From NCBI GenBank assembly GCA_038882955.1, contig JAVZNC010000010.1, forward strand, positions 1 through 17,016: a DNA stretch of 17,016 nucleotides, in the 5' to 3' direction. Origin of the DNA: Candidatus Bathyarchaeia archaeon. GTDB taxonomy: Archaea; Thermoproteota; Bathyarchaeia; Bathyarchaeales; Bathycorpusculaceae. Positions 1,604 through 17,016 of this stretch are shown here, one piece after another; position 1 is the stretch's first letter; each line of letters opens with the position of its first letter. Below the pieces are notes generated by a model. It saw only the letters and a program-made list of their open reading frames with translations, did not search any database and had not been told where the DNA came from. A program made the position numbers and the translations under genes.

Positions 1604-1758
1604 ACACTAACAAACTACTAATAAACCTTTGCAAAATGGTAAATAAGCATTATTCCAAACAAAATAGAATAACGCATATATCCCAATTTTCCAGTAAATT
1701 CTAATGCATTCAATAAGGAAGGGGCCGTAGTCTAGGCAGGTATGACGACGGGCTCCAG

Positions 1759-1825
1759 AACAATGCCAAACGGGTTTGCGGACCGCCATGCGGAATGAAG
1801 AGGTTCTGGAGCGGTCAGTAGAGAA
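1759..1825 (+). ncRNA. 67-nt tRNA-Trp intron (37/38) containing a box C/D-type 2'-O-methylation guide
   Basis: Guide ACGGGTTT 1770-1777 is complementary to 1824-1831 and is followed by D'-like CGGA 1779-1782; the +5 rule hits C39. C'-like ATGAAGA at 1795-1801. Second guide GTTCTGGAGC 1803-1812 is complementary to 1752-1761, which covers C34. Confidence 0.8.
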
Positions 1826-1831
1826 ACCCGT

Positions 1832-1859
1832 AGAAACAGCCAAGCGCTGTTTCGGGGAA
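1832..1859 (+). other. Second, non-canonical 28-nt tRNA intron at about position 43/44
   Basis: Hairpin GAAACAGC 1833-1840 / GCTGTTTC 1846-1853. Relaxed BHB: bulges GTA and AAA around an ACCC/GGGG helix. Removal restores the canonical variable loop AGGTC. Boundaries are uncertain by 1 nt. Confidence 0.85.
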
Positions 1860-1938
1860 AGGTCGTCGGTTCAAATCCGGCCGGCCCCACCACAATTTGC
1901 AATCGTTTATGTTATAGGAAATTATTCTCAGCGAATGC

Positions 1939-2550
1939 TTATGGCTGATTCATAAATTCTATGAATTCTTTAAGTGTGCGCTTTTGAAGCGTATAGTTTG
2001 TTTTTCGCTCTTTGCCTATTGTTGAATAAGGGTGTTCTCCGTAGTCGTGGCCCGGATAAACTTCTATGTCGTTGTCTAGTTTCAAGATTTTGTTGAAGAG
2101 GCTGTTGTACATGTCTTCTGCGCATCCGCTTGGCAGGTCTGTTCTGCCGCATTCTCCGACAAAAAGCGTGTCGCCTGTAAACAGTTTCCTATTGGTTAGG
2201 AGGCATATGCTGTCTGGCGTGTGTCCGGGTGTGTGTATAACCTCTATTGTTGTTTTTCCAATTTTTATTTTGTCTCCATCTTCCACGCTTATGTGCTTGT
2301 TGATTTCTGATCGTTTGTGGGCTACGACTTTTGCATTGAACATTTTTTGCAGTTTTTGGTTGCCCGCCGTGTGGTCTACGTGGTTGTGAGTGTTCATGAC
2401 GTATTTTAGTTGGAAGTTGTGCGCCTTTAAGACTTGGATGATCGCTTCTGTGTTGAAGCTTGGGTCGATTACAGCTGCTTCTTTTGTTGTTTCGTCCGCT
2501 ATTATGTAAGAGAAGTTGTCGCCTCGATGCTTTATTTGCCTAAAAAACAT
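1939..2550 (-). CDS. MBL-fold metallo-hydrolase (glyoxalase II / ETHE1-like)
   Basis: Motifs THNHVDH, HTPGHT, FTGDTLF, GRTDL and YPGHDY. Confidence 0.92.
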   Translation of the reverse strand: MFFRQIKHRGDNFSYIIADETTKEAAVIDPSFNTEAIIQVLKAHNFQLKYVMNTHNHVDHTAGNQKLQKMFNAKVVAHKRSEINKHISVEDGDKIKIGKTTIEVIHTPGHTPDSICLLTNRKLFTGDTLFVGECGRTDLPSGCAEDMYNSLFNKILKLDNDIEVYPGHDYGEHPYSTIGKERKTNYTLQKRTLKEFIEFMNQP

Positions 2551-2568
2551 GTCTGTTTTGTTTCCCCT

Positions 2569-3924
2569 CTAGATTAGAACATATTCAATGTGCATACCCA
2601 TTTTTGCCAGTTCTTCGATGTTTTGGACACAGCCTATGCTTGCGTCTATGTTACGGTGTTTTGGGTGAACCCATATATACCGGGGCGACAAATTGAACTG
2701 TATAGGAATTTTTGTGAAGACTCCATAGGCGTCGAGACTCCTAATTAGTACGTTGTTTGAGCAAGCCTTACGGATTGAAACGTAGCTTTTTAGCAGTTCC
2801 TTTGCGGCGAAAACGCCTATGCCATGCCAAAGTGAGGCGTTTTCTGGCGATGCAAGCGAGTATATGAAGAATTGTGGCGACGATGGAGTTTTCTTGAAAT
2901 CGTAGTTTGTTAGAGCTTCCCCCTCAACTGTGAATTCGTCTTCGGCTTTTGCTATGCTCACGTCGTTTGGGTCTATGGCGTTTGGATAAAGCAGCGTAGT
3001 TTTATACGTCACTTTCACGTTTTTCAAGTTCCCGTTTTCAAAGTAGATTCTGCCCCTTGCCGCACGTTTTGAACCGTAACCCTTAGTAGAATGTGGAACC
3101 GTCAGTAATGTTGTACGTTTTTTCATGCTTCTGCCCATGCATTGATATGCGCCTTCAATCGCATAATAGTCCCTATGCACTTCTTTTATAATGTGGTGCA
3201 GCAAGCCTTGTGCGTCTTCTTTTTGCAAAGTTTCGATTGGCAAGCGCATAGCATATAGGCAGAAGTTTATCCCAAAAATTTCTGAAAGCCTCTCCATCTG
3301 TTCGTATTTTACCGCATCAACCATGTCCAAGTAGCTATTGTTGCAAGTTTCTAGGCAGCGCCTTATTAATTCAACCTCACCTTGCGATATGAGTGTTCCA
3401 TCATATTTTCTTACAAAATTTTCGTCGATTTTCAGCCTTTCAGTTTTGACGTAAGCCGAGGGGAAGGCGCTCTGCCCGCTTGTTACAATTGACTCTTTCA
3501 GCGGGTTCATTGAATATCTGTCTGGTTCTATGTCGTCTGTGTTGAGTAAGAATGCAACGATTTTCCCCTCTGGCGGTTTTTGAAGCATCTCACATAGTTC
3601 GCTGATATCCTCTTCTTCGATTTCGCCTAAGCCATATTGGCAAAAGTAGTTTCCGCAAACTTCGAGTAGGCGAGCAGCGATTATTCCTTGAACCTCTTCA
3701 ACTGTTAATTGCGGGTTTGAGTATTCAACGGAACTTCTCAGAAAGAAGTGCTTGCCACTAAGCTTAACCTCATGCCTTTTACCATTTTTAAATTGGAAGA
3801 AGCTGAGCTCTCTTTTCTCGTTTCCCTCAAATTCTGCAAGTTCTTTCACCAAAACTTCTATACATTGCCACGAGTTCTTTAAGAAGCCTTCAAGAATCAT
3901 TTTGGCTAAATTCTGTTGCGTCAA
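2569..3924 (-). CDS. Hypothetical soluble protein, 451 aa
   Basis: Long ORF with 6- and 18-bp gaps to co-oriented neighbours. No family recognised. Start is TTG 3924 or the nearby ATG at 3900. Confidence 0.8.
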   Translation of the reverse strand: MTQQNLAKMILEGFLKNSWQCIEVLVKELAEFEGNEKRELSFFQFKNGKRHEVKLSGKHFFLRSSVEYSNPQLTVEEVQGIIAARLLEVCGNYFCQYGLGEIEEEDISELCEMLQKPPEGKIVAFLLNTDDIEPDRYSMNPLKESIVTSGQSAFPSAYVKTERLKIDENFVRKYDGTLISQGEVELIRRCLETCNNSYLDMVDAVKYEQMERLSEIFGINFCLYAMRLPIETLQKEDAQGLLHHIIKEVHRDYYAIEGAYQCMGRSMKKRTTLLTVPHSTKGYGSKRAARGRIYFENGNLKNVKVTYKTTLLYPNAIDPNDVSIAKAEDEFTVEGEALTNYDFKKTPSSPQFFIYSLASPENASLWHGIGVFAAKELLKSYVSIRKACSNNVLIRSLDAYGVFTKIPIQFNLSPRYIWVHPKHRNIDASIGCVQNIEELAKMGMHIEYVLI

Positions 3925-3930
3925 GCGCTC

Positions 3931-4773
3931 TCAGCCCCTCTCCAAAGATTCTGCAATGTAAATGCAGTCTCTAAAAACCATCGGTCCAGAAAACATCCTA
4001 ACAACGTTAAAGCTTTCTTTAAATCTGAAGCCCAAAAGCATGTTTATTATTGCCCTTTCCTTTTTTGGTAGGCATATCGAAACTTCGGAATCCTTAACTT
4101 TTTTCAGCACTGCGGCCAGAAGACTTCTGGCTACGTCGCCTTTTTCTCTCCTGCAAATAAGGGGGCCTATCTCCGAATAGTGGTTGTAAACCTTTACTAT
4201 GATGTATCCCGAAATTTCCCCGTTCTCAACGTGGTAGTAGCACAGGTTATTTTTCCCGCTAGCGATTCTTTCCAACAGCTTTTTCCTAGAAGCGCCGAAA
4301 TAGAGGCTATCAAATTCTACTATCTTCTGCATTTCATTCTTCCCCGCCTCCATCACATCAGCCGCCTCAAAATTAGGAGAAGAGGCTTTACCATTTAAAA
4401 CCGCGAATTCTAGGTCGCGTTTGAAGCAGAGTCTTAAGTAGAAATTAGCCTTTTCCTTGTATGAGTATAAGCCCACCATTTCGGCGCCCTTGCTTCTCAA
4501 GTATTCTATGGCATGTTTCACAAGGATACTTCCAGCCCTTTTTCTACGGTACTTTTCATCCACTATAACGTTTCCAATCCAGCCGATTTTGCCGTAGCTT
4601 ACAGTTGTTGTTATGCCGATTTTTTCCGAGCCGCATAAAAGCGTAAAGCATCCTTCTGGTTCCAACTGCATCATGAATTCGAAGTCTTTTTCCGTTAGGT
4701 TCCAGTTCATGGTGTCGGTTAAGCAAACAGCAAATTCAATATCTTCGAAAGACATCCTTCTAACTTTAAACAT
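3931..4773 (-). CDS. Two-domain GNAT family N-acetyltransferase
   Basis: Acetyl-CoA motif A VIVDEKYRRKRAG and motif B FYLRLCF. Second degenerate GNAT domain (FDSLYFGASR, IGPL), C-terminal ERG. Confidence 0.88.
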   Translation of the reverse strand: MFKVRRMSFEDIEFAVCLTDTMNWNLTEKDFEFMMQLEPEGCFTLLCGSEKIGITTTVSYGKIGWIGNVIVDEKYRRKRAGSILVKHAIEYLRSKGAEMVGLYSYKEKANFYLRLCFKRDLEFAVLNGKASSPNFEAADVMEAGKNEMQKIVEFDSLYFGASRKKLLERIASGKNNLCYYHVENGEISGYIIVKVYNHYSEIGPLICRREKGDVARSLLAAVLKKVKDSEVSICLPKKERAIINMLLGFRFKESFNVVRMFSGPMVFRDCIYIAESLERG

Positions 4774-4880
4774 CGTTTTCCCATGGTTCTTTTGCCGAAC
4801 GCGTGTTTATCACGCTTTTGTTGGCATAAACTTTACTAGGACGCTGAAGGAGAAAAATCAAATCTAGGGGGTTCACAGCA

Positions 4881-5390
4881 ATCGCAGAACCAAGGCTTGA
4901 GGTTGAAATACCTAGAGACGTTAAGATCACGACACATCCCTTCACAGAGTATTTTAAGGGCTTTGAGAAAGTTGAGGCGGTTAGAAGTATTTTTGGCGAA
5001 AAAACCGAGGTGGTTCTACGTAACCTTCAAGTGGAATTTGTGGGTTTTAGGGGTTACATGGGCGTCAGCGAGGTAGACGGCCACCTAATGATTAGTGCAT
5101 ATTACTTGAAAAACGGCGACTTAGTTGACATTTACTTAGACATCATTCACGAGCTTGTCCACGTGAAACAGTTTATGGATGGCAGGAAGCTCTTTGATGA
5201 AAGGTATGACTATGTTGTGAGACCCACAGAGATTGAAGCGTACCGCCATGCTGTTGAAGAAGCCCGGAGGCTTGGTTATGACGACGCCAGAATATGTCAA
5301 TATCTAAAGACAGAGTGGATTAGCGAAAGGGAACTACGAAAACTTACGAAAGCACTTAATGTTAAGTATGTGCCTCCATCCAAAAGATGA
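4881..5390 (+). CDS. Small zincin-like HExxH metalloprotein; start uncertain (ATC 4881 or GTG 5010)
   Basis: IIHELVHVKQ plus downstream EIEAY. Frame is open from 4848 to 5390 and reads as protein-like sequence upstream of 5010. Confidence 0.7.
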   Translation: MAEPRLEVEIPRDVKITTHPFTEYFKGFEKVEAVRSIFGEKTEVVLRNLQVEFVGFRGYMGVSEVDGHLMISAYYLKNGDLVDIYLDIIHELVHVKQFMDGRKLFDERYDYVVRPTEIEAYRHAVEEARRLGYDDARICQYLKTEWISERELRKLTKALNVKYVPPSKR

Positions 5391-5406
5391 GGAGAATTGC
5401 AGATTT

Positions 5407-5820
5407 ATGGCTAAGAAAGTTTTTATGATGAAGTTAAGCGAGGTACAGCCAAGTCAACTGTACATTTGTTCTGAAAAGTTGTCTGAGGTTATGAAAACAT
5501 TTAACACCACAGGCCCTAAAATGATGGAACCGATACCAGTTAAGAAGTTTAATGGCGACATTATCCTTGTGGATGGACATACAAGGGCTTTTGTAGCCTT
5601 CCTTTGCGGCTTTTCAGAGGTCCCAGTTTATTGGGAATCTGAAGAGTTGGATTGGAACGCCTACAAAATATATGTGGAATGGTGCAAGAGGGATGGAATA
5701 CGCACGATAGCCGACCTTAAAAATAGGGTCGTATCCCAAAGGGATTATGAAAAGTTGTGGTATGAACGATGCGAGAAAATGCAGAGATGCTTGGAGATAG
5801 AAAAGAAAAGGAAACTGTAG
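5407..5820 (+). CDS. ParB/sulfiredoxin N-terminal-like domain protein
   Basis: Motifs LSEVQPSQ, PIPV and LVDGHTRA. No HTH follows. ATG 5407 chosen over the overlapping TTG start; GAGGAG lies upstream. Confidence 0.75.
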   Translation: MAKKVFMMKLSEVQPSQLYICSEKLSEVMKTFNTTGPKMMEPIPVKKFNGDIILVDGHTRAFVAFLCGFSEVPVYWESEELDWNAYKIYVEWCKRDGIRTIADLKNRVVSQRDYEKLWYERCEKMQRCLEIEKKRKL

Positions 5821-5901
5821 GTTCAAATTTGGGCTGTCCGACTGTGGCGGGGCGTAACACTTTTAACCCTATTGTTCCTTTCTAGTTTGTGGATGGTTGA
5901 A

Positions 5902-6600
5902 ATGAGAAAATTTTGGTGTCTAGCCTTAATTGTTCTGGTTTCGCTGTCCTTCCTTTCGATGCTGCATTTGGTCGCCTTCGCTGAAACGCCAACCCACTTG
6001 ATGGTTGTTGAATGGTATGGTCGTGGCCGTGGGCACGTCGTTCTCGCTGAGATACCCGCTGAAGACGATTCTATGGAAAATCCGGATTACAAGCTTTTGC
6101 CCTACTATTGGCGTACTACAATAAAGTATTGGATTAACCCGAAAAACAGTTATGGCTTCTCAACAACGGCTGTTGTGACGACTATAACGGCTGCGGCAAA
6201 CGCTTGGGATGAGCAAACAAGCTTCGTCCTTTTCGCTTATCAAGGCACAACCCGCAAAAGTGCCGGAGTGCGAGACGGCTACAACGTTGTTGCTTGGGGA
6301 TTGTATTCGAATCCAAACGTGATTGCCGTTACATACATATGGTATTCAGGCGACAAAATGGTTGAAACTGACACGCGAATGAACACGCGTTTTAAATGGA
6401 GTTTAAGCGGTGAAGCGGGCAAAATGGATGTGCAGAACATTATGACGCATGAGTTTGGCCACTGGTGCGGCCTTGCCGACTTGTATGGCAATGTAGACTA
6501 CTGGCTGACGATGTATGGCTATTCAAGCTATGGAGAAACATACAAGCGGACACTTGGACTAGGCGACATCCTCGGACTACAAGCAAGATACGGCCAGTAA
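5902..6600 (+). CDS. Secreted matrixin-like (metzincin) metalloprotease
   Basis: Signal peptide MRKFWCLALIVLV. Zinc motif HEFGHWCGLAD, Met-turn LTMYG, C-terminal DILGLQARYG. Confidence 0.88.
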   Translation: MRKFWCLALIVLVSLSFLSMLHLVAFAETPTHLMVVEWYGRGRGHVVLAEIPAEDDSMENPDYKLLPYYWRTTIKYWINPKNSYGFSTTAVVTTITAAANAWDEQTSFVLFAYQGTTRKSAGVRDGYNVVAWGLYSNPNVIAVTYIWYSGDKMVETDTRMNTRFKWSLSGEAGKMDVQNIMTHEFGHWCGLADLYGNVDYWLTMYGYSSYGETYKRTLGLGDILGLQARYGQ

Positions 6601-6616
6601 CTTCCCACTTCTTTTT
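6601..6616 (+). terminator. Possible pyrimidine/oligo-T archaeal terminator
   Basis: CTTCCCACTTCTTTTT directly follows the protease stop, in a convergent intergenic gap. Confidence 0.4.
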
Positions 6617-6720
6617 GAACTGGCAATCGTCACTATGCGTACACAAAACATATGTTACCTTGTTCTAAAAGAGTGGAGAAGTTGAAAAATTCGGAACGAG
6701 AACTTTCACTACGCGTTCTT

Positions 6721-6987
6721 TTATTCTTCTGTCGCTCCGGCTTCTACAACTTCGGCTTCGGCGAATCTTCTGCTGATCCTTGTTATTTTTATTTTGACGT
6801 GATCTCCGGGCTTTGTGTTCGGTATGAAGGTTACTAGTCCTTGGATGCGGGCTATTCCTTCGCCTCTTCGGCTTGTTTCTGTGACATCTACTTCGTATTC
6901 TTTGCCTATTTCAACCGGTTTTGGCGGGAACCTTCTTGGTCCTCTTCCGAATTCTCTTCTTCCGCTGAACCTTCTTCTTTCTTCCAT
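6721..6987 (-). CDS. Single-TRAM-domain RNA-binding protein with R/G/F-rich N-terminal tail
   Basis: PVEIGKEYEVDV...GEGIARIQGLVTFIPNTKPGD...FAEAEV. Strong SD GAGGTGA upstream. Confidence 0.92.
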   Translation of the reverse strand: MEERRRFSGRREFGRGPRRFPPKPVEIGKEYEVDVTETSRRGEGIARIQGLVTFIPNTKPGDHVKIKITRISRRFAEAEVVEAGATEE

Positions 6988-7030
6988 ATGTTTTCACCTC
7001 GCCTTTATTCGTTTAAAATTGTTCCGCGCT

Positions 7031-7321
7031 TCATTCGACTGTGAGTTTTCCGTATTTTCCAACGTTCAGTTGGATTTCTCCCTTGAAGCTTGTTACGTAG
7101 CCGTTTTCCACCTTAACCGTATCGTTAACGTTCACTTGGTTTATTTGGTCGTTCCATAAGGTTAACTTGATAGTGCCTGTCTCGTCTGCTATTACGGCTG
7201 TTGATACCCTATGGGTTGTGTCACTGAACCTTGAGAGAACCTCTCGTGGAGGAGATTTCTCTATAACTTTGGCTTCGACGTTTACCCGTTTCATTCCGTT
7301 TCGCAGTTCCTTAATCTTCAC
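7031..7321 (-). CDS. Single OB-fold ssDNA/RNA-binding protein (crenarchaeal SSB/RPA-like), no acidic tail
   Basis: Motifs ADETGTIKLTLW and VKVENGYVTSFKGEIQLNVGKYG. 96 aa, GTG start with GAGGGG upstream. Confidence 0.9.
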   Translation of the reverse strand: MKIKELRNGMKRVNVEAKVIEKSPPREVLSRFSDTTHRVSTAVIADETGTIKLTLWNDQINQVNVNDTVKVENGYVTSFKGEIQLNVGKYGKLTVE

Positions 7322-7340
7322 TCTTTTGCCATCCCCTCTT

Positions 7341-7625
7341 TTAGGCTATTCTTTCCGCGACAGCGAATTTTCCTCCAACTGAAACAATGCGCACTCTGAC
7401 GCGTTCGCCTATCTTGCTGTTTGGAACAAAAATCAAATAGCCCTGTATTCGGGCTATGCCGTCTCCTCTGCTTCCAATGTCGTCTATAACAACCTCCAGT
7501 TCCTGGTTTTCCTTTACTGGTGACATTTGGAAAATTGGCTTGCCGGGGTTGAAGCGTCTGCTACTCCCAAACCTTCTTGGTTTTCTCTGGATGTTTTTTG
7601 TTTTTTCTGGAAGCCTTCTTGGCAT
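7341..7625 (-). CDS. Single-TRAM-domain RNA-binding protein with basic N-terminal tail
   Basis: PVKENQELEVVIDDIGSRGDGIARIQGYLIFVPNSKIGERV...FAVAE. Confidence 0.92.
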   Translation of the reverse strand: MPRRLPEKTKNIQRKPRRFGSSRRFNPGKPIFQMSPVKENQELEVVIDDIGSRGDGIARIQGYLIFVPNSKIGERVRVRIVSVGGKFAVAERIA

Positions 7626-7650
7626 ACGGTTTTTTCGTCCTTATCGCGGA

Positions 7651-7723
7651 ACCAGCCTCATCCGCTAAAACTCAAGTGTCCCGCTTTTGCTGAACACCGA
7701 GTTTTCAGCCGAGGCTAGCTGGC
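7651..7723 (-). promoter_or_regulatory. Long stem-loop in the predicted 5' leader of the TRAM-SSB-TRAM operon
   Basis: On the minus strand, CTAGCCTC pairs with GAGGCTGG and GCTGAAAACTCGGTGTTC pairs with GGACACTTGAGTTTTAGC, with an apical GC-AAAA-GC. Several pairs are G-U on this strand only. Confidence 0.7.
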
Positions 7724-7743
7724 ATCACAAACGGCAACCACGC

Positions 7744-7756
7744 ATATAAATCTTGC
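7744..7756 (-). promoter_or_regulatory. Archaeal BRE/TATA promoter for the TRAM-SSB-TRAM operon
   Basis: Minus strand reads CAAGA-TTTATAT, with TATA at 7750-7744. Predicted start is about 7720-7725. Confidence 0.65.
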
Positions 7757-7881
7757 TAGATGCGCCACTGTAACATTCGATGTTTAGTTAGGAAGTTTGT
7801 CGGAAGAGTAAATGGTATATAGCCTCCCGCATTATTTGCTATGATGCTCATGTGAATGCCATAACAAATAGAGGATTAAAC

Positions 7882-8616
7882 GTGACAAAATCAGCGCTTT
7901 CAAAGTCCATAATCGAATTGGTCGACGTTTACAAAGAGTATAGAATTGGAACCATTTCAACAATAGCTTTGAAAGGGGTAAACTTCCAATTGCATAAAGG
8001 GCAGCTCGTCGCCATAATGGGACCTTCCGGTTCCGGTAAAACCACACTTCTGAACATAATTGGGCTTTTAGACAGACCGACAAAAGGAAAAATCTTCTTT
8101 GACGGCTTTGACGTTTCAAGGTTAAGTGATAAAGCTCTTGCGAGCTTAAGGAATAACAAGCTAGGTTTTGTTTTCCAAACCTTCAACCTTGTTAATAGAT
8201 TAACGGTTTTCGAAAACATTGAGTTGCCCCTAATACCGAAGGGAATCCCCCGAAGAATTAGGGCTGAAATGGTTAAAGAAGCATTAACAAAGGCTGGCGG
8301 GAACGATAAGTGGCTTGCCAAAAAGCCAGCTCAGCTTTCTGGAGGGGAACAACAGCGTGTGGCAATTGCAAGGGCTATTGTTGGAAAACCAGTTGTTGTT
8401 TTGGCTGATGAACCAACTGGCAATTTGGACAGAGCCTCAGCTAAGCTTGTAATTGAAACCTTTCTCAATCTTAACAAGGCTGGACACACCGTAGTTGTTG
8501 TCACTCATGATCCAGAAGTGGCAAACTGTATGGAAAAAATATATGTTATAAGAGATGGAGAGATAGTGGGAGAATTTATGCCTAATAAGGCAGAATCCCT
8601 TATTAGCAAGGCGTAA
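7882..8616 (+). CDS. ABC transporter ATP-binding protein, LolD/MacB/SalX family
   Basis: Walker [19 protein letters not shown], signature [14 protein letters not shown], Walker [11 protein letters not shown], and VTHD. GTG 7882 follows GAGGA (alternative start 7852). Confidence 0.95.
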
Positions 8617-8640
8617 ATTTCGCTAGGATAGGTGGAAGGT

Positions 8641-11139
8641 ATGAAAAGCCTAAAGAAAGTTTTACCCCTTATACTGGTTATAACTCTCACGTTACAATCC
8701 TCATCTATGCTTGTCCAGCATATAGCCCTCGGCGAGCCGCCAAACGATTTCGTCGTAAGGAACTACTATGTTAGATCTTCAGCGGACACATCAAACATCT
8801 ACGCTGGCAGCAAAAGAGTCTATTTGAAAGTTGAAGTAGCTTACCAAAACAGCACCGCCAATGCCACCATGGTTTTTGGATGGCTTAAGATGCCGGACGA
8901 TGTCAGTTTCAGCTCTGGAAGCGACGCTTCTCCACCAGCAAAATTTAACGGAAGTGTGGTCAAAGAAGTCAGTCTGGGCATGGTTGTGACATTCGAGTAT
9001 TTCCTTGACATTTCAAGTGATTTACCAGCTGATCAATCTTCAACGTTATATTTGACGTTGAACATAACCTATTTAAAGGATTCTACTCCTACCTACGATT
9101 TACATCCAGACGAGATAATAATTAAAGTTCAGCCTTATCCGGAGGTTTCCTTGAGGGTTGTTGACGCTTATTTCTCGCCTGCCTCATATCCAGGTTCCGT
9201 TGACACGAACCTTTATGTGGTGTTGGAGAATAATGGAAACAGCGCTATTAACTCTGCGAACTTTAATGTCACGCTTCCAGAGGGCTTCACGGTCAAGAAC
9301 CCTCGGGCAAGCACCGGACCCGTCAATAGGGGGGACCGTTTCACTATAACATTTACCGGAGTGTCTATACCACTAAACGCTCAATTGGGAACACACAACG
9401 CGACTATTTATGCGGATTACAGTGCCAGAACGGAGGACGGAGTTGCCTACAGCACCACATCGCCCTTCAACATCACGGTTATGGTTGAAAGCCCTCCTTC
9501 CGAAGAACCCATAATGGTGGCGGCTGTAAACACGCTTTATAATGGGGAACCTGCTCCGCTGCTTCAATCCGCCAAAGGCGTCATTTTGCGAATTTACCTT
9601 ATCAATAGACTTCCAGACACCATAAGCACGATGATTGTAAATGCAACGCTTCCAGAAAACATTACGGTTAGAGGAATTTCCGGAACATATATTAATGGGA
9701 TGGGCCCAGGCGGCACATGTTTTGTCGACTTAACAGTAGATGTCGACCCAGAAATGGCTTTAGGAAGGCATACTTGCAGTTTGGGCATATTCTACTTAAG
9801 AATAGTTTCTGGTTCTTCCTTCCTCATGAGCCAAAGCTTGCGGTTCCAGATAAATGTTGAAAGCCGCCACAGCGTCATCGATGACAGCTCGGCTGTAGAA
9901 ATTGTGGATTCAAGGTGGTATGAAGGCTCGGTTGGACCCAACACTTATGGTGCTCACCTAATAGTTCTCGTCAGAAACGTTTACATCGACAGCCTCCACG
10001 GGGCTGTGCTTGAACTTGACTTGCCAGAGGGAATATACAATTCTGCAGACAACTCCAGCCGCATTAAGGCCGCACCATTATCAGTGCAGCTTCAACTACC
10101 CCAGCCACTGCAATCACAAGACCTTGCAGAGATTTTGAACGCCTTTTTAAGCGCACAAATAGCCAGTCCAGCGCAGGTTTACGGCAGAGGTGACATCCTA
10201 ACCTTCATGTTTAGCCTTAACCTGTTTGATGTTGATGCCGGAAACCACGTTCTTGAAGGACGCTTATCATACATCGACGGGTGGGGCGGCAACCGACAAA
10301 TTCCAACAAAAGTGACTGTTGCCATCCTTGGAAAGGCTGGATACATTGAAATAGTCATGGAAGAAAACATTAGTGTGAGAAGCCGATTTACAAGCGCTAC
10401 TTTAACTCTTGTTAATCATGGAAGCTCACCAGTTTACGACGCTTATGTTGTGATTTCGCCTTACCAAGGGACGCCAATACTTATTGCTTCGCCAGCGTTA
10501 AACTATGTGGATAGGATTCTCCCAGAAGAAAGCCTTGAAATCCCCTTGACATTGGCGTATAATCCACTTGGCTTTTACACGCAAACCAGTGGGACCATGA
10601 CTGTAACGTATGGACCGGTTCCATTCATGATTTCGATAATTTATAGGGATGCGTGTGGCTACCAACGCATCTTCAACAATTCAATAATCGTGACGATTGA
10701 ACCTTTCATAGAACTCGCATTAGGAAATGTTAAGGCAACTGGCACTGGCACAACTTCAACAGTGTCGGGCATCATTGTTAATTATGGTTCGGCAATAGCC
10801 TATCGCGTTGAAGTTGAGCTTAAAATTGGCAATGCCTCAGAGTCATCCTTTATAGGCGATATTGAACCGGGCTCAGAGATAGCCTTCAGAGTGGACATAA
10901 ACAAGTACAGCGACTCCGCTGTTTTAACTGTAAGATACTATGACATATTCAACAAGCTGGAAACAAAGGAGACAAACATACCCGTCACACTTCAAGAGGT
11001 TGCACCTCCAACAGTTAAAGGCGAAGAGTTCCCGATTGAAAGATGGATCATTGTGGCGGGCGTCATCATATTTCTGGCTGTCGCAGCCGTCCTGATAAAT
11101 AGGACTGTGAAGAAGTCAAAACTGGAGGGCGGTTCCTAA
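8641..11139 (+). CDS. Membrane-anchored Ig-like repeat surface protein (COG1361/S-layer-domain type)
   Basis: N-terminal signal peptide. Repeated beta modules (MPDDV, LPEGF, LPENI, LPEGI; LENNG, LVNHG, IVNYG). Many N-x-S/T sequons. C-terminal TM helix plus basic tail. Confidence 0.8.
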   Translation: MKSLKKVLPLILVITLTLQSSSMLVQHIALGEPPNDFVVRNYYVRSSADTSNIYAGSKRVYLKVEVAYQNSTANATMVFGWLKMPDDVSFSSGSDASPPAKFNGSVVKEVSLGMVVTFEYFLDISSDLPADQSSTLYLTLNITYLKDSTPTYDLHPDEIIIKVQPYPEVSLRVVDAYFSPASYPGSVDTNLYVVLENNGNSAINSANFNVTLPEGFTVKNPRASTGPVNRGDRFTITFTGVSIPLNAQLGTHNATIYADYSARTEDGVAYSTTSPFNITVMVESPPSEEPIMVAAVNTLYNGEPAPLLQSAKGVILRIYLINRLPDTISTMIVNATLPENITVRGISGTYINGMGPGGTCFVDLTVDVDPEMALGRHTCSLGIFYLRIVSGSSFLMSQSLRFQINVESRHSVIDDSSAVEIVDSRWYEGSVGPNTYGAHLIVLVRNVYIDSLHGAVLELDLPEGIYNSADNSSRIKAAPLSVQLQLPQPLQSQDLAEILNAFLSAQIASPAQVYGRGDILTFMFSLNLFDVDAGNHVLEGRLSYIDGWGGNRQIPTKVTVAILGKAGYIEIVMEENISVRSRFTSATLTLVNHGSSPVYDAYVVISPYQGTPILIASPALNYVDRILPEESLEIPLTLAYNPLGFYTQTSGTMTVTYGPVPFMISIIYRDACGYQRIFNNSIIVTIEPFIELALGNVKATGTGTTSTVSGIIVNYGSAIAYRVEVELKIGNASESSFIGDIEPGSEIAFRVDINKYSDSAVLTVRYYDIFNKLETKETNIPVTLQEVAPPTVKGEEFPIERWIIVAGVIIFLAVAAVLINRTVKKSKLEGGS

Positions 11140-11160
11140 ACAGCAACGGTGAAACGCCAC

Positions 11161-12366
11161 ATGTTTGCGGATTTCGTGAGGCTTTCGCTTAAAGCCCTAA
11201 GCGAAAGAAGGATGAGGGCTGCACTAACAATAGTAGGGATAGCCATAGGCCCTCTAGTCCTCGTAATGATGAGCTCTGTTGTTGGAAGCTATTCAAACTA
11301 TATAGAGGAGAAAATAACGTCTCTTGGGCAAAACGCCATCGCCATTTTTCCAACAGAAAATTATCGACTCGACGAAGAAGACCTAAACTATATCAGGGCT
11401 ATTGAAGCGGTTAAGAGGGCTGAACCCTTCTACAACACGCAAGGCGTAGTAAAAAGGGGAACAGAAGAAGTTAAAGTGTCCATATTCGCGGTTGACTACA
11501 GCCTACTTTTCGAGACTATAGGAAGTCTAAAAATCAATGAGGGCAGCATTCCATCAGAGCGTTTATATGTTATAATAGGGCGAAAAATAGCCTACAAAGA
11601 CAACGAGAAATATTTCCGCCTAGAAGACGGACTAATCGTGAACGTGCCAAAGTTTGAAGGAGGGAAAATAACAGGCAGAAGAACAATAGGAGTGCGGGTC
11701 GGCGCCATCCTTGAAGAATATGGCGGCGCATTAATAGTGGATCCCGACTCCACCATCTTCATGTGTCTAGAGGCTGGCAAAAGCTCTCTTGGGATGGATA
11801 GATGGTCTGGAATTCTTGTTTTAGTAAACAGACCGGCTGACGTCAAGCCTGTTGTCTCAACTTTGAGGCAGTATTATGAGGATAAAGCCCAAATAATCGC
11901 TTTCAGCTCCATTGCTGAGGCGGTCTCCAGCGTTACCGGAGCGATAAACTTCATAAACTTTTCAACTTCGCTTTCAGCTTTCGCCGTCGCCATAGCTGGA
12001 GTGGCAGCCACCATGATAACATCTATTATGGAACGCACAAGAGAGATAGGCGTAATGAAGGCTATAGGCTACACGAACAAGCAGATTCTCCTACTAATCC
12101 TCATGGAGTCAATAGTCATGAGCCTCGTCGGCGGATCAGCCGGAATATCCTTAGGCGTGGTGGGCGCCTACATACTAGCCTCAAGAGGCTTTACAATAGG
12201 CGGAATAGGCGAAAGCGGCATAACCCTACAACTAAGCCCATTAATAACGCCAACCCTCATAACCCAAACACTAGCCCTAACAATGCTTATTGGCTTAGTA
12301 GGCGGAATCCTTCCAGCCTACAGAGCCTCAAAAATCCCGCCAGTAGTAGCCCTAAGATACGAATAA
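11161..12366 (+). CDS. ABC transporter permease, MacB/FtsX family
   Basis: RAALTIVGIAIG, large extracytoplasmic domain, SIMERTREIGVMKAIG, PAYRASKIPPVVALRYE. ATG 11161 follows a GGTGA SD (alternative GTG 11149). Confidence 0.95.
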   Translation: MFADFVRLSLKALSERRMRAALTIVGIAIGPLVLVMMSSVVGSYSNYIEEKITSLGQNAIAIFPTENYRLDEEDLNYIRAIEAVKRAEPFYNTQGVVKRGTEEVKVSIFAVDYSLLFETIGSLKINEGSIPSERLYVIIGRKIAYKDNEKYFRLEDGLIVNVPKFEGGKITGRRTIGVRVGAILEEYGGALIVDPDSTIFMCLEAGKSSLGMDRWSGILVLVNRPADVKPVVSTLRQYYEDKAQIIAFSSIAEAVSSVTGAINFINFSTSLSAFAVAIAGVAATMITSIMERTREIGVMKAIGYTNKQILLLILMESIVMSLVGGSAGISLGVVGAYILASRGFTIGGIGESGITLQLSPLITPTLITQTLALTMLIGLVGGILPAYRASKIPPVVALRYE

Positions 12367-12382
12367 ATTTGGCAAAGATTAC

Positions 12383-13540
12383 TTAGAGCCAAATTGCTCC
12401 ATAAACTAAGAAACGAAATGCCAACATACTGATTAAGCTGCTAAGAAACGAGACAGAAACGCTTTTTGTCCATGAGAATGCAAATAATAAATGAACAGCA
12501 ATGCTGCATAGGGCTACAATCCAAACAAGATATGTTATCCTGTCTAAAACATCATATTTGATGGACAAGATGGACATGAAGTTCTGGGCATCTGCGGTCC
12601 ATCCTTCCCCTGAAACCCCGCCTAATGTTTCTAAAGATAAACGCATTTCAGGGTAAGCAAAAACAACCCCAATGAGAATCAGATTCTCTACGAATAACGT
12701 TATGAGCACAAACCCAGATATGGTAAGCATTGTTTTCCAAACCGGTTGTCCTCTAAAAAGCTTTGAAAACAAATAGAGAATAATGCCGAAAATTACCCAC
12801 TGTATGGTGAACTGCATGAACCCGCTTATTATAGAATTAACTATTATTGCACTTCCATTCATCTCAAGCATGGATTCATAATAGCCATGAAAGAAAACCC
12901 CGTCAACTAAGACCGTTATATTTTTGTTGCTATTCCATGCTAATTCAAATTTTAAGCTTGTTATGTTCCGCCAATCTGCATCATTAACTGTTGTAAAGGC
13001 TGTTAAAGGAATGGTTTTATTATTCCAAGAATTTATTTCCACATCATTTCCTGGCAACAAATAACTGAAGTATTTGTCTGCGGCGTTTTTTGAGAATAGG
13101 TAAATGCTCACATTAACTGGTTTCTCGGAGGGTTCAACTATTTTCATTCTAAATGATAAATTAGTGTAGTTATTTGGTTCTATGCAATTTAACGGTTCTG
13201 GAATCCTTAATTCCACATCAATTCGGCTGCTGTCTTCCAAGGCGAATTGGATGCTTCTGTTTCCATAATAATTTCCTTTAATGTAATCCACATTGTTTAC
13301 AGATTTGTTCGCATTTGAATACCAAAGGCTAGCATCTTCCGTCCACACATCTAAATCCAACAATTCCGGAGCTGATTGGTCGTAATAGACTCTCGTGGAT
13401 AAGACGTAGTAGAATCCTGAAAAAGACAGCACAAATAGCAACATGATTATTAATGGTCCTCTGTATCCAGGTTTCTGTATTATCTCCTTGAAGGCCTTGT
13501 GAGGCGCATATATAACTCTGAAGACTTCACGCATAGACAT
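12383..13540 (-). CDS. Yip1-family membrane protein with inserted extracellular beta-sandwich (carbohydrate-binding-like) domain
   Basis: Yip1-type start (VIYAPHKAFKEI + TM1). About 175-aa Asn-rich insert (LSFRMK, WNNKTIPLTAF, DWRNITSLKF, LVDGVFF). Four C-terminal TM helices. Confidence 0.72.
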   Translation of the reverse strand: MSMREVFRVIYAPHKAFKEIIQKPGYRGPLIIMLLFVLSFSGFYYVLSTRVYYDQSAPELLDLDVWTEDASLWYSNANKSVNNVDYIKGNYYGNRSIQFALEDSSRIDVELRIPEPLNCIEPNNYTNLSFRMKIVEPSEKPVNVSIYLFSKNAADKYFSYLLPGNDVEINSWNNKTIPLTAFTTVNDADWRNITSLKFELAWNSNKNITVLVDGVFFHGYYESMLEMNGSAIIVNSIISGFMQFTIQWVIFGIILYLFSKLFRGQPVWKTMLTISGFVLITLFVENLILIGVVFAYPEMRLSLETLGGVSGEGWTADAQNFMSILSIKYDVLDRITYLVWIVALCSIAVHLLFAFSWTKSVSVSFLSSLISMLAFRFLVYGAIWL

Positions 13541-13574
13541 CTATTTTGGCTCCGTTGTAGTTTGTCCAAGCAAC

Positions 13575-13586
13575 ACTATTAAAGGT
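13575..13586 (-). promoter_or_regulatory. Putative TATA box for the Yip1 gene
   Basis: Minus strand reads CAACCTTTAATAG about 35-45 nt upstream of ATG 13540. Confidence 0.45.
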
Positions 13587-13589
13587 TGC

Positions 13590-15098
13590 TTACATGCCAG
13601 CCTTAAGTCGTCTATATATGGTGTAGTCCACATATTCAAGAAACGGGTTTTCCGCTTGATACTTAACGGTTAATTTTTGACGTTGCCTTTTTTCCGTTAT
13701 CTGGCTTGTTGTTATGAAGGAGTAGGCGTCGCTTCCAGCACCAGAACCGTAGCTTACGATGAGGATGCGTTCGTTTGGCTTTGCAGCGTCAAGAACTGCT
13801 GCTAAGCCTACTGGCGATGAGCCTGAGTAAGTGTTGCCAAACTTTGCCACTTGGATTGAGGGCATGTATTGCTCTTCTTTGAAGCCTAGTTCGCGGGCTA
13901 TCCTTACTGGAAACTGGACGTTGGGTTGATGCGCCACAAAATAGTTTATGTCGCTTGGCTTCAAGCCCAGCCTATCCATAAGCTTCTTCGCAGCTTTTCT
14001 TATATGTTTGAAGTAGGCTGGATCTCCAGTAAACCGCCCACCATGCATTGGGTATGGTTCACCATCTCTCCGCCAGAAGTCGGGCGTATCGGAAGTGCAT
14101 GAGTACCAGCCTTCAAGTTCCGCTATGACATCGGTTTTTCCGAATATGTAGGCGCATCCACCATAGCCAACGAAGAAGTCCAGCTCTCCGCCCGGAGAAT
14201 CTCTTGGAGCTGCCTGCGAGTTGTCCGCCCCAATAACCATGGCATATGAGACGCCCATTTTTGGATAATTGACCAGCGAGGCGGCATCCTTAAACATACT
14301 TGTCGCCGCCTTACACGCGAACTCCGTATCCACAGCGTCAACGCCTTGGACATCCTCATCCTCTTCGCCGAGCTTAAGGACTTGGGCAACCTTTGAGGCT
14401 ATGGGTTTAACAGCGTACGGGTTTGACTCAGAACCGACGTAAACCTTACCAACAAGCGAGTTGTCAACGCCTGAATGAATTAAGGCGAGTTTTCCAGCCT
14501 CAACAGCTGCTGTTATGGCATCCTCATCTATGAAGGGGACTGAACGTTCTATGCCGCCCTCCCTAATTCTAAACCTAGAGGAGTACACGCCGTAACCCAC
14601 TATGCCTGGAGCATCATACTCTTTGTTGGGCTTTATTATGCGATATTCTTGATGCGGATAATATTCGTCGGCAAAGGTAAAAGCCAAAGAAATTGTTGGG
14701 ATAATTTCACTTCTCTCAACAGAATAGCGTCTCCTAAACCTTGGAACGACTTCCCTACCCTCAAAAGCTGAAAAGTCTATAGCTTCGCCATACTTTACTA
14801 TTTTGTCTGTAAGCCTTCCCGGAACCCTTATTTTGCCGTTGTGAAAGGAGACTATACCATAAATGTAGCTGCCAAGCTTTGTAAACTTGTTTGTAGGCTC
14901 ATTAATAAGGGTGCAAAGCTCAAATCTGCCCTTCTCATAGAAGAGGTCTATGTCCTCCATTTTTCCGAAGCTTTTTCTCCCGCAGTTTCCGCAATAGTCT
15001 CTTATTTCAAAGTATTCTTTTCCACAAATTTGGCAGCGTCTGCCCCTAAGCCTGTCTCCAAGATAGGAGACGCGTCTTTCTATGGGTTCACTGCTCAT
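13590..15098 (-). CDS. Fusion: N-terminal DUF35 (Zn-ribbon + OB-fold) and archaeal HMG-CoA synthase
   Basis: Residues 1-150 contain CQIC/CGNC and an OB fold ending PRFRR. The remainder has GIVGYG, VGSES (Glu), EFACKA (Cys), DTPDFWRRDG, HQPN (His), GNTYSG and SYGSGAGSD. Confidence 0.93.
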   Translation of the reverse strand: MSSEPIERRVSYLGDRLRGRRCQICGKEYFEIRDYCGNCGRKSFGKMEDIDLFYEKGRFELCTLINEPTNKFTKLGSYIYGIVSFHNGKIRVPGRLTDKIVKYGEAIDFSAFEGREVVPRFRRRYSVERSEIIPTISLAFTFADEYYPHQEYRIIKPNKEYDAPGIVGYGVYSSRFRIREGGIERSVPFIDEDAITAAVEAGKLALIHSGVDNSLVGKVYVGSESNPYAVKPIASKVAQVLKLGEEDEDVQGVDAVDTEFACKAATSMFKDAASLVNYPKMGVSYAMVIGADNSQAAPRDSPGGELDFFVGYGGCAYIFGKTDVIAELEGWYSCTSDTPDFWRRDGEPYPMHGGRFTGDPAYFKHIRKAAKKLMDRLGLKPSDINYFVAHQPNVQFPVRIARELGFKEEQYMPSIQVAKFGNTYSGSSPVGLAAVLDAAKPNERILIVSYGSGAGSDAYSFITTSQITEKRQRQKLTVKYQAENPFLEYVDYTIYRRLKAGM

Positions 15099-16325
15099 TT
15101 AGAAGCCCCTTCCAAAAATGTTGACATAACTTTTAGTGCCAAAGCCCTCAAGCTCAAGCACACAACCATATTTTAAATCCCCATCAGTTTTTATTTGGCG
15201 TTCGCCAGCCTCGCCCCTAAGTTGTTTGACAACCTCGTAGGTTTGGGCTCCGCCCGTGGCACCCAACGGGTTTCCATCAGCCTTTAAGCCGCCACTCATA
15301 TTCACAAAAAGCTTCTTTCCATTCACCTCATAATAGCCCTTATAATCTTTGCAACTTTCAAAAATAGCTTCCCAAGCTGTTCCCCGCTTGCAAAAGCCTA
15401 AATCCTCAAGGGAAATCATTTCTATAACAGTGGACTGGTCGTAGAGTTCCAACACTTGTATGTCCCATAAATTTATCCCAGCAGTTTTTAGGGCTTTTTC
15501 CATGGCCAGGCGGGTTGCAAGAAAACCAGTCATGTCTTCGCGGGTTGGAAAAGTTAGATAGTCGGTGGCTGATGCGGAGCCAAGCACATAAATTGGTTTG
15601 TCAGTCAGCCTTTTGGCGGCCTCCTCGCTAGCTAAAATCACTGCAGAGGCTCCATCAGATATGGGTGCAAAATCATAGAGCCCTAAGGGACGTCTCGCAT
15701 TCTTTCTGGCTTCCAGCACTTGCTCAACTGTTATTTTTCGCTGGAATTGGGCGTACTCGTTTTTCAAGGCGTTCAGATGATTCTTAACGGATATCTGTGC
15801 TAAGGCGATGCCTAACTTTTCAAGGTTCTCGCCGCTGATTCCGTACCGCTTAATGTAAGCCCTCAGCATAAGCTCGTGGTTGGCTTCAGGTGTGCACCCA
15901 GCATAATAACTCCAAGGGTCTTCGAGAAGCATTAGGTCATCTCTAATTTTGTCCCATCGGTCCGTCATTTTCTCTACCCCGCCGACAAGCACTATGTCAT
16001 ACTTTCCAGCATGAATAGCATTACAAGCATTAGAGAAGGCTGAACTAAACGAGCGCACAACATCCATAGGCACATGCAACTCCGTCAACTCCGATAGGAA
16101 GCCCTCCTCAAGCCCAAGCTTATTTGTTATTGGCAGAAAGTAATCCGATAAATAGCAAGCCTCCAAGTCTTTGCGTTCAAGCCCAGCCTCTTCAGAAGCC
16201 CTAAGCCAAGCCTCTTCAATGAGGCGTTCAGGCTGCCTCTCGTAATGTTCGCCAAACTTTGTCCTTCCAGCCGCAACTATTACTGGACGGTTTCCCATCG
16301 CCGCATGCCCCTCTTTCTGTAGCAA
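15099..16325 (-). CDS. Archaeal/SCP2-type thiolase homologue lacking canonical catalytic residues
   Basis: Thiolase scaffold motifs TKFGEH, VGGVEKM, KNHxNAxxN, PISDGASA and SGGLKAxGxPLGATG. The ACAS loop is absent, HD has become YD and GHP has become GNP. Start is TTG 16325 or ATG 16298. Stop abuts the next ATG (TAAATG). Confidence 0.9.
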   Translation of the reverse strand: MLQKEGHAAMGNRPVIVAAGRTKFGEHYERQPERLIEEAWLRASEEAGLERKDLEACYLSDYFLPITNKLGLEEGFLSELTELHVPMDVVRSFSSAFSNACNAIHAGKYDIVLVGGVEKMTDRWDKIRDDLMLLEDPWSYYAGCTPEANHELMLRAYIKRYGISGENLEKLGIALAQISVKNHLNALKNEYAQFQRKITVEQVLEARKNARRPLGLYDFAPISDGASAVILASEEAAKRLTDKPIYVLGSASATDYLTFPTREDMTGFLATRLAMEKALKTAGINLWDIQVLELYDQSTVIEMISLEDLGFCKRGTAWEAIFESCKDYKGYYEVNGKKLFVNMSGGLKADGNPLGATGGAQTYEVVKQLRGEAGERQIKTDGDLKYGCVLELEGFGTKSYVNIFGRGF

Positions 16326-16426
16326 TTATCCCCTTCAACAAGACTTTTAAGTGTTTGCCAACTCAACGCTCTAACCATAAAACATTAACTAATCGCCTTA
16401 AACATAATTCTAGTTGAGGCTTAAAA

Positions 16427-16741
16427 ATGAAAAATGAGGATAAATATCGCTTAATTATAACTGTTAAGGAGATAAGGGGATACTGTCCAATCTTCAAAGT
16501 CGGCGACAAAATAGTTGTAGAATCACCGAAAATAATTGTTGAGGAAACAGATAATATGTGCGTTCACGCTTTGGGCTGCATGCTCTCCATGCTTGTTCCA
16601 TTAAGCCGCGGAGTAAGCTTCAAAAATTTGGGCTTGGCAAAAAAGGAAGGCGAAACCGGGTACGTGCAGTGCTTAGACCCTGGAAAGCCCTACACAGACG
16701 GCGGAACAGTGCTCTTTGAAATAAGACGAGAAAGAATTTAA
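16427..16741 (+). CDS. TIGR04076-family three-Cys small protein
   Basis: Pattern GYCPIFKVGD...MCVHAL...QCLDPG...VLFEI. Confidence 0.75.
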   Translation: MKNEDKYRLIITVKEIRGYCPIFKVGDKIVVESPKIIVEETDNMCVHALGCMLSMLVPLSRGVSFKNLGLAKKEGETGYVQCLDPGKPYTDGGTVLFEIRRERI

Positions 16742-16745
16742 GCGA

Positions 16746-17016
16746 TTATTTTTCGACAATCCTTGGGTGAACTAGCTGGCGGCAATAGGGACAGTGAACT
16801 AGCGCCTTGTCACTGGTGGATCTCCACTTCTTCTTGCAAAAGGGACACTCAAACCAAACAGCGGTGCCTGGAACAACAAACCACTGTCGACTCAAAAGCC
16901 ACAAAACTATTCCAGCAATTAGCAGAACATCCCCCAAAACAACGAGATAGATGAGCTTAAGAGAAAGCCATGAGAAAATAGGCAGCTCCTCAGTCCATAG
17001 AAGGGAAAGGAACGTC
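16746..17016 (-). CDS. Membrane protein with C-terminal Zn-ribbon, 5'-truncated by the window
   Basis: Frame is open to the window end (TFLSLLWTEELPIFSWLSLKLIYLVVLGD...). Hydrophobic helix followed by CPFC...CPYC. Confidence 0.75.
   Translation of the reverse strand, partial: TFLSLLWTEELPIFSWLSLKLIYLVVLGDVLLIAGIVLWLLSRQWFVVPGTAVWFECPFCKKKWRSTSDKALVHCPYCRQLVHPRIVEK

Follow-up and report, generated by a model that had tools for sequence, protein, structure and literature searches.

How does an archaeal 3-hydroxy-3-methylglutaryl-CoA (HMG-CoA) synthase (HMGS) with an intact active site come to be encoded beside a thiolase that has lost its own? This question is raised by a locus of Candidatus Bathyarchaeia archaeon (assembly GCA_038882955.1), in which a DUF35 domain is fused to the N-terminus of an HMGS domain and a thiolase-like gene lies directly upstream of the fusion gene. 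The window analysed here is the whole of contig JAVZNC010000010.1 (C10; positions 1–17016), which belongs to a 1.54-Mb bin (G000) of 31 contigs, 95.6% complete with 6.1% contamination; "own order" and "own family" below are the GTDB order Bathyarchaeales and family Bathycorpusculaceae of this host. Bathyarchaeia are among the most abundant archaea of sediments and hot springs, and no archaeon can build its membrane lipids without the mevalonate pathway. We consider it probable that the fusion is the mevalonate-pathway HMGS, that the thiolase-like protein has been kept beside it for a structural role and for its share in the CoA site, without catalysis, and that separate live thiolase/DUF35 pairs make the acetoacetyl-CoA.

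Domain architecture of the DUF35–HMGS fusion

A sequence-only reading of this stretch had described a single 502-residue open reading frame (ORF) joining DUF35 to an HMGS domain that retains Glu, Cys and His. This was borne out, in that the frame is uninterrupted and both the domains and the residues could be confirmed (Table 1). For the N-terminal domain, the Pfam zinc-ribbon model zf-ChsH2 (PF12172) matched residues 16–44 with E = 1.5e-4 and 21.9 bits, slightly below its 23.2-bit cut-off, and 8 of 14 diverse fused relatives were also matched by it. Residues 17–92 could be aligned to the DUF35 chain of the Methanothermococcus thiolase/HMGS/DUF35 complex (6esq_E; E = 3.4e-8). The Pfam OB-fold model PF01796 gave no match in the window fusion protein itself, and 3 of the 14 relatives matched it. 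When a profile of residues 1–160 built from 35 fused proteins was compared with one of 15 stand-alone DUF35 proteins, hhalign returned a probability of 99.9% (E = 1.9e-34) over columns 2–145, and on this profile–profile match the OB-fold half of DUF35 is predicted to be present in the fusion protein. All four ribbon cysteines occur in the window protein; C22 and C36 are invariant among the 35 fused proteins, and C25 is at least 90% conserved.

The HMGS domain scored 377.9 bits against the equivalog model NF003274, well clear of the cut-off of 244, and 343.4 bits against a second equivalog, TIGR00748, just below the cut-off of 353.35, with the match starting at residue 165. The HMGS chain of the Methanothermococcus complex (6esq_I) matched the domain with E = 1.8e-79. 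Glu, Cys, His and Asn form the catalytic tetrad of HMGS (PMC12960953); the corresponding Glu224, Cys262, His390 and Asn422 are all kept and are invariant in the 35 fused proteins. An AlphaFold2 model of the fusion, built on the 35-protein alignment, had a mean predicted local distance difference test score (pLDDT) of 90.2 and a predicted template modelling score (pTM) of 0.93, and the best Foldseek match to it was again 6esq_I, with a template modelling (TM) score of 0.90. Judged by its residues and profile matches, the HMGS-type subunit is predicted to be catalytically intact.

The thiolase-fold partner has lost its catalytic residues

The partner gene lies directly upstream, and its TAA stop codon abuts the ATG of the fusion gene. 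Its longest ORF begins with TTG at 16325; homologues align from residue 10, and the real start is likely the ATG at 16298. The Pfam model Thiolase_C_1 matched the protein with E = 3.7e-30 and the thiolase chain 6esq_A with E = 2.8e-50, the latter alignment having a four-residue gap at the Cys and GNP in place of GHA. None of the NCBIfam thiolase models reached its cut-off with the partner, the best being NF004720 (306.5 bits against 420), and the equivalog NF053570 gave 248.5 bits against 600.

Three motifs, CxS, HDxF and GHx, define the archaeal thiolase (PMC12960953), and all three have been lost from the partner. The Cys is absent from a stretch that is four residues shorter, HDCF has become YDQS, and GHP has become GNP. 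In an AlphaFold2 model (pLDDT 92.3), the nucleophile helix, comprising model residues 84–96 (ORF residues 93–105), is one turn shorter, and the fold of the complex's thiolase subunit is kept (TM 0.90–0.93 to 6esq_A and 6et9_C). The upstream protein is predicted from these changes to have no thiolase chemistry left.

The partner is nonetheless under purifying selection. Its nonsynonymous divergence (dN) is 0.095 from the gene of genome G145 and 0.138 from a second copy on contig C4 of the same bin; synonymous divergence (dS) is saturated at >2, giving an omega of roughly 0.03–0.06. For the fusion gene, the same comparisons gave dN values of 0.061 and 0.085. Across 74 sequences of the partner type, with pairwise identity down to 51%, conservation reaches at least 95% at 134 of 408 positions.

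Table 1. Positions in the window of the fusion gene, its partner and their diagnostic residues
Feature	Coordinates	Strand	Basis or remark
DUF35–HMG-CoA synthase fusion gene	13590–15098	−	502 aa plus stop codon 13590–13592; no internal stop
DUF35 domain (zinc ribbon + OB fold), residues 1–146	14661–15098	−	hhalign, 6esq_E, zf-ChsH2
Zinc-ribbon cysteines C22, C25, C36, C39	14982–15035	−	residue check, conservation
Inter-domain linker, residues 147–163	14610–14660	−	between the DUF35 and HMGS matches; pLDDT about 95
Archaeal-type HMG-CoA synthase domain, residues 164–502	13593–14609	−	6esq_I, NF003274, Foldseek
Catalytic codon E224	14427–14429	−	aligned to 6esq_I motifs
Catalytic codon C262	14313–14315	−	aligned to 6esq_I motifs
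Catalytic codon H390	13929–13931	−	aligned to 6esq_I motifs
Catalytic codon N422	13833–13835	−	aligned to 6esq_I motifs
Thiolase-fold partner gene, lacking the thiolase catalytic residues	15099–16325	−	Thiolase_C_1, 6esq_A alignment
Former nucleophile elbow R91–S95 (RSFSS)	16041–16055	−	Cys absent, helix one turn shorter
YDQS replacing HDCF, residues 295–298	15432–15443	−	alignments, residue check
Asn352 replacing the GHP histidine (GNP)	15270–15272	−	alignments, residue check
E391-L-E393 replacing N-x-G of the last thiolase loop	15147–15155	−	at least 95% conserved in 74 sequences

Integrity of the locus and its place in the bin

A stop codon or frameshift between the two domains had been named as an observation that would overturn the proposal. 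None was found in assembled, DNA-type contigs from four public metagenome runs (three studies), which cover the stretch in pieces and show neither indels nor joints where they cover it. Single contig pieces cross both the domain junction (14552–14739) and the junction of the two genes (14964–15404) with zero differences. All of the best 120 homologues listed are 502 residues long, and the close ones are labelled Bathyarchaeia. An artefact of assembly or frameshift is ruled out by these uniform homologues together with the indel-free contigs across the junctions.

The pair occurs a second time in the bin, on contig C4, with 87% identity in the fusion and 79% in the partner; the motif losses are the same, and so are the genes that follow. 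Most of the length of C10 matches five other contigs of the bin at 72–81% nucleotide identity, in scattered pieces. In 14 of 15 same-family genomes the fused HMGS is the only match (split over two contig ends in G032), and the second match in G145 is an HMGS-like gene of 29% identity. In the thiolase tree, it is the G145 gene, and not the copy on C4, that is sister to the window partner gene. On the piecewise matches of C10, the single copy in family genomes and the G145 sister placement, we reject a reading of the two fused copies as paralogs; C10 looks instead as if it came from a second, related population that was placed in the same bin.

A single match to HMG-CoA reductase (PF00368) was found in the host genome, and the enzyme is present in all four relatives checked. 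In a third HMGS-like gene, on contig C2 (17534–18946), Glu is replaced by Thr, Cys by Leu and His by Pro, and the encoded protein ends in a DUF35 domain. By residue content, the fused form is the only type of intact HMGS predicted in the bin. A check of whether it is the genome's only HMGS had been suggested; it is the only intact type, with two fused copies, and the C2 gene is the one other HMGS-like gene.

Downstream, the fusion gene is directly followed by a Yip1-family membrane protein gene (12383–13540, − strand), and then by genes for an ABC ATPase, a large protein with an NPCBM-associated domain and a MacB/FtsX permease (7852–12366, + strand); the same neighbours follow the C4 copy. Among these downstream neighbours in the window (Yip1, ABC transporter) there are no biosynthetic genes and there is no evident link to HMGS.

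Distribution of the fusion and of altered thiolases

In a survey of 151 Bathyarchaeia genomes, a full-length fused match was obtained in all 15 same-family genomes, in 15 of 18 other genomes of the own order and in 7 genomes of other families. In most other Bathyarchaeia families the HMGS is unfused and about 350 residues long. Gene order differs accordingly, fused loci having the thiolase and then the fusion, and unfused Bathyarchaeia loci having HMGS, thiolase and DUF35 in turn; at all 29 own-order loci the thiolase-like gene is directly upstream of the fusion. When 1.84 billion representative proteins were searched, several distant fused clusters (37–50% identity) were recovered, one of which includes a protein labelled Lokiarchaeota. 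In a tree of HMGS domains (65 rows, quick method), the fused sequences form one clade of 25 rows, with 99 in the Shimodaira–Hasegawa-like approximate likelihood ratio test (SH-aLRT), and two long-branch fused sequences are unplaced at the base.

Full-length neighbouring thiolase genes were then classed as altered or normal by their motifs (Table 2); the class sample and the species-genome sample, which holds 80 loci in all, probably share species, and their counts are not independent. The sequence-only reading had proposed a test of whether the fusion and Cys-less thiolases occur together and had held that fusions commonly paired with normal thiolases would speak against it. This link holds within the own order, where every counted thiolase is altered, but is not general outside it, where four of seven fused lineages, and a truncated fifth, have normal motifs. 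Of 12 unfused Bathyarchaeia operons, 8 also have altered thiolases. For the older fused lineages, which pair with normal thiolases, the tie is contradicted.

Table 2. State of the thiolase gene beside fused and unfused HMGS
Sample	Altered	Normal	Left out of the counts
Own order, fused	28 of 28	0	1 of 29 loci, cut by contig end, shows YDQS and GNP
Other families, fused (7 lineages)	2	4	1 truncated, normal motifs
Bathyarchaeia, unfused	8	4	1 locus ending before the thiolase gene
Species genomes, fused	45	1	6 loci without the gene and 4 with a truncated one in which no motif is normal
Species genomes, unfused (other phyla and bacteria)	3	18	1 without the gene; 2 truncated, keeping CAS

The altered thiolases do not share one set of replacements. 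In the unfused Bathyarchaeia operons the Cys is changed to Ser, Asp or Gln, and among independent Cys-less lineages the old catalytic positions differ, with S, D, Q or G at the Cys and HDDS, HDET, HDSS or TDDT at HDxF. Cys-less operon thiolases beside unfused HMGS also occur elsewhere, at loci L153, L171 and L173 of Methanophagales, Nezhaarchaeota and Methanomassiliicoccus genomes. A tree of 53 thiolases (quick method) groups the neighbours of fused genes in one clade, within which the normal lineages branch first and 31 altered rows share a long stem (1.01 changes per column). This tree requires no fewer than four changes from normal to altered. A topology with a single clade of all altered rows, a group named after the tree had been seen, had a log-likelihood lower by 199.6 and was rejected (p = 1e-44, approximately unbiased test). 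The branching order and the repeated changes indicate that the fusion came first, with loss of thiolase chemistry later and more than once, and that the two features are separable.

In three genera of the own order (g11, g14 and g15; genomes 95–98% complete), the fused HMGS and the Cys-less thiolase are both missing, and the live thiolase has been kept. They carry instead a long HMGS of 454 residues with the full E/C/H/N tetrad (genome G014, locus L177, 1501–2865; also G044 and G050). This joint absence indicates that the pair is gained and lost as one unit.

Sources of acetoacetyl-CoA

If the partner makes no acetoacetyl-CoA, the substrate would have to come from elsewhere, as had been proposed, and this fits the gene content of the host genome. 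Four live thiolases with CAS, HDCF and GHP intact were found (C1 51521, C18 3116, C1 190207 and C2 16345), each with a DUF35 partner; in three cases this is a stand-alone DUF35 neighbour and for the C2 gene it is the fused HMGS-like–DUF35 protein. Some of the live thiolases adjoin genes of the β-oxidation type. When 40 other genomes of the own order were sampled, 29 had an orthologue of the live C1 thiolase (at least 68% identity), and the Pfam model Thiolase_N matched in 40 of 41 order genomes, mostly two to five times. In two closed chromosomes with the fused system there were 11 and 3 Thiolase_N matches.

Two further arrangements were observed around these genes. At C2 16345–18946, where the live thiolase stands with the degenerate HMGS-like–DUF35 protein, a 3-hydroxyacyl-CoA dehydrogenase gene adjoins. 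At C1 52835–56042, directly beside a live thiolase/DUF35 pair (51112–52750), another thiolase-like gene without the Cys (436 aa) is clustered with a gene for a long DUF35-like protein (228 aa) and one resembling KAS-III and type-III polyketide synthases (364 aa).

An alternative offered by the sequence-only reading, that the HMGS fold itself performs a KAS-III-like condensation, did not stand as a general answer in its malonyl-CoA form. The carboxyltransferase (PF01039) was found in two of five genomes searched (G000 and G008) and gave no match in G082, G020 and G026, by which an NphT7-like malonyl-CoA route is ruled out as the general answer.

Proposed role of the partner and alternative explanations

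In the mechanism that we favour, the 502-residue protein would be the organism's mevalonate HMGS, carrying the DUF35 scaffold as its N-terminal part, and the upstream thiolase-fold protein would have been kept as an obligate, non-catalytic partner. The Methanothermococcus complex, on which this is modelled, is assembled from four DUF35 monomers and two dimers each of HMGS and thiolase, with a CoA site shared by both enzymes (PMC11522927). By analogy, a thiolase dimer would form the core, DUF35 would clamp HMGS to that core, and the thiolase side would contribute to a shared CoA-binding site needed by the short archaeal HMGS. Archaeal HMGS is 50–100 residues shorter than other HMGS enzymes, and in the long HMGS-type enzyme VirC an extra C-terminal subdomain sits precisely where DUF35 sits in the archaeal complex (PMC11522927). 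When expressed alone, archaeal HMGS is inactive and the thiolase is insoluble (PMC12960953). On these grounds the short HMGS would need DUF35 as well as a thiolase-fold partner, both structurally and to bind CoA.

Acetoacetyl-CoA would be supplied by live thiolase/DUF35 pairs encoded elsewhere and would reach the HMGS by diffusion rather than by channelling; with the Cys, the HDxF His and the GHx His gone, none made inside the complex could be channelled. A paralogous thiolase would at some point have taken over acetoacetyl-CoA synthesis, after which the operon thiolase could lose its chemistry and not its place in the complex. Indirect support for a physical complex comes from the adjacency of the two genes, their abutting stop and start codons and their joint loss; its formation, the part of the partner in the CoA site and the identity of the supplying thiolase are inferred. 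A structural partner fits with the purifying selection on the gene, its joint loss with the fusion where a long HMGS has taken over, the repeated losses of chemistry and the varied residues at the old active site.

Several observations weigh against this explanation. Loss of channelling forfeits the thermodynamic coupling that is thought to come from the complex (PMC11522927). In genomes G082 (95% complete) and G026 (97%) no thiolase-family gene was found besides the Cys-less one, nor any other KAS-III-family gene, strong 3-hydroxyacyl-CoA dehydrogenase match or carboxyltransferase, and HMG-CoA reductase is present in both. Changes have also become fixed in the HMGS domain of the own order. 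HMGS domains of the clade whose partners are dead share a four-residue insert, RDSP, at residues 299–302 (14193–14204) and the substitutions D304G and P174S; of 44 HMGS sequences from outside this clade, none has the insert, and 98–100% keep the usual residue at positions 304 and 174. Finally, the replaced positions Q297, S298, N352, E391 and E393 of the partner, together with H150, E147 and E151, are at least 95% conserved in 74 sequences, which would also fit a new function.

Such a function, with an aldol/retro-aldol site like those of Ltp2 and Sal or a decarboxylase-like site acting with HMGS on CoA esters, is the main rival, which we regard as unlikely. Besides the conserved replacements, it can draw on loops common to live thiolases (GGVEKMTD, SDGA and N..GGLKA) that are invariant across live and altered forms, and on the Cys-less proteins Ltp2 (YDHF), Sal (YDCY) and TbSLP (YDCF), in which the HDCF His is likewise replaced by Tyr, a residue that is catalytic in Ltp2 and Sal (PMC12329534). 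This Tyr is not fixed, however. Among 75 relatives of the partner type, the first residue of the former motif is Tyr 67 times, Asn 7 times and His once. Of the second catalytic residues, Tyr344 in Ltp2 and Cys304 in Sal (PMC12329534), that of Sal is unmatched, its equivalent being Gln297. The structures nearest to the partner model are those of the complex thiolase, with Ltp2 at rank 27 and Sal at rank 49; an Ltp2-like aldolase reading is weakened by this more distant structural match and by the varying Tyr. Independent Cys-less lineages with different residues at the old site look like decay and not like one new chemistry, and a partner gene that vanishes together with the fused HMGS also speaks against a function of its own.

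The pair might instead make HMG-CoA from acetyl-CoA by itself, either with HMGS performing both condensations or by an unknown thiolase-independent mechanism. G082 and G026, with their reductase, the pair and no other thiolase-superfamily gene found, favour this, as do the fixed changes in the HMGS domain. These are, however, only 2 of 29 high-quality order genomes without a second thiolase, whose absence may be real or may be due to assembly gaps. Thiolase genes can cluster on one stretch of contig, as on C7 of G008, and clustering with assembly gaps could explain both cases. The search model also matters, since a bacterial-type thiolase of G020 was found with PF00108 and PF02803 and is missed by a mixed profile (E 1e-5) and by PF22691. 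Both closed chromosomes checked have further thiolase-family genes, and the malonyl-CoA variant is unlikely where no carboxyltransferase was found. We know of no precedent for HMG-CoA synthesis from acetyl-CoA by such a pair alone, and consider it highly improbable here.

That the complex condenses other acyl-CoA substrates and is not the mevalonate HMGS, as the sequence-only reading had also allowed, seems to us barely credible. Relatives have been repurposed many times, as in PhlABC, MucABC, BbsAB and Ltp2 (PMC12960953, PMC12329534). In the present system, however, the tetrad is intact and the NF003274 equivalog cut-off is passed, the fusion is the only intact HMGS type in genomes that have HMG-CoA reductase, a long HMGS substitutes where it is missing, and the downstream genes offer no biosynthetic context.

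The explanation with a structural partner and acetoacetyl-CoA supplied in trans has consequences beyond this locus. The partner is annotated as an acetyl-CoA acetyltransferase and, on its predicted active site, cannot be one, so that metabolic reconstructions counting the gene as the thiolase step would be wrong. From this case, a thiolase-fold partner seems indispensable to the short archaeal HMGS. The case is not a one-off, the same loss recurring independently in several archaeal lineages. A bolder proposal, for which we see only a slim chance, is that the operon thiolase repeatedly became a conserved pseudoenzyme because the short HMGS depends on it structurally (at least four times in Bathyarchaeia, and in Methanophagales, Nezhaarchaeota and Methanomassiliicoccus), and that in the G082 and G026 lineages the Cys-less partner and HMGS make HMG-CoA from acetyl-CoA by undescribed chemistry.

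Comparison with known complexes

In the literature consulted, mostly at the level of titles and abstracts and with the 2018 structure paper not covered, no description was found of an N-terminal fusion or of a Cys-less operon thiolase in archaea. C-terminal HMGS–DUF35 fusions are already in print, from Streptomyces albus (PMC11522927) and Pseudomonas fluorescens (PMC12960953). In the Streptomyces albus HMGCS, HMGS and DUF35 likewise share one polypeptide, but DUF35 is C-terminal, and the portion of PMC11522927 available to us mentions no Cys-less thiolase partner.

The Cys-less SCP2-thiolase folds of Ltp2–ChsH2(DUF35), Sal–Shy(DUF35), both steroid aldolases, and TbSLP resemble the partner in binding DUF35 and in the change of the HDCF His to Tyr (PMC12329534). 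Ltp2 and Sal are active aldolases with catalytic pairs Tyr/Tyr or Tyr/Cys (PMC12329534), whereas the Tyr of the window type varies, Gln297 stands at the position of the second catalytic residue of Sal, and the structures rank 27–49.

PhlABC, MucABC and the PfACAT/HMGS–DUF35 complex of Pseudomonas fluorescens have the same three-part architecture and likewise retain one dead thiolase-superfamily subunit (PMC12960953). In the Pseudomonas fluorescens complex DUF35 is also fused to the HMGS-type subunit, at its C-terminus (PMC12960953), and in the window it is N-terminal. In all of these the HMGS-like subunit is dead and the thiolase live (PMC12960953), and in the window the roles are reversed. 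The sequence-only reading had called the locus a mirror image of PhlABC, and the description is apt, the HMGS-type subunit being intact and the neighbouring thiolase altered at CxS, HDxF and GHx. The arrangement known from Pseudomonas fluorescens (PMC12960953) is also encoded in the host genome, at C2 16345–18946.

The closest likeness is to the Methanothermococcus thiolase/HMGS/DUF35 complex (6ESQ), which provides the best structural and sequence matches for all three components, with the HMGS residues intact and the genes adjacent. The window differs in having DUF35 fused to the HMGS N-terminus, so that two genes encode the three parts. The 6ESQ complex is defined by a competent thiolase, whereas that of the window lacks the Cys, the HDxF His and the GHx His. 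From its sequence, the system is best classed as a variant of the thiolase/HMGS/DUF35 complex that departs from it in this one defining feature, the competent thiolase.

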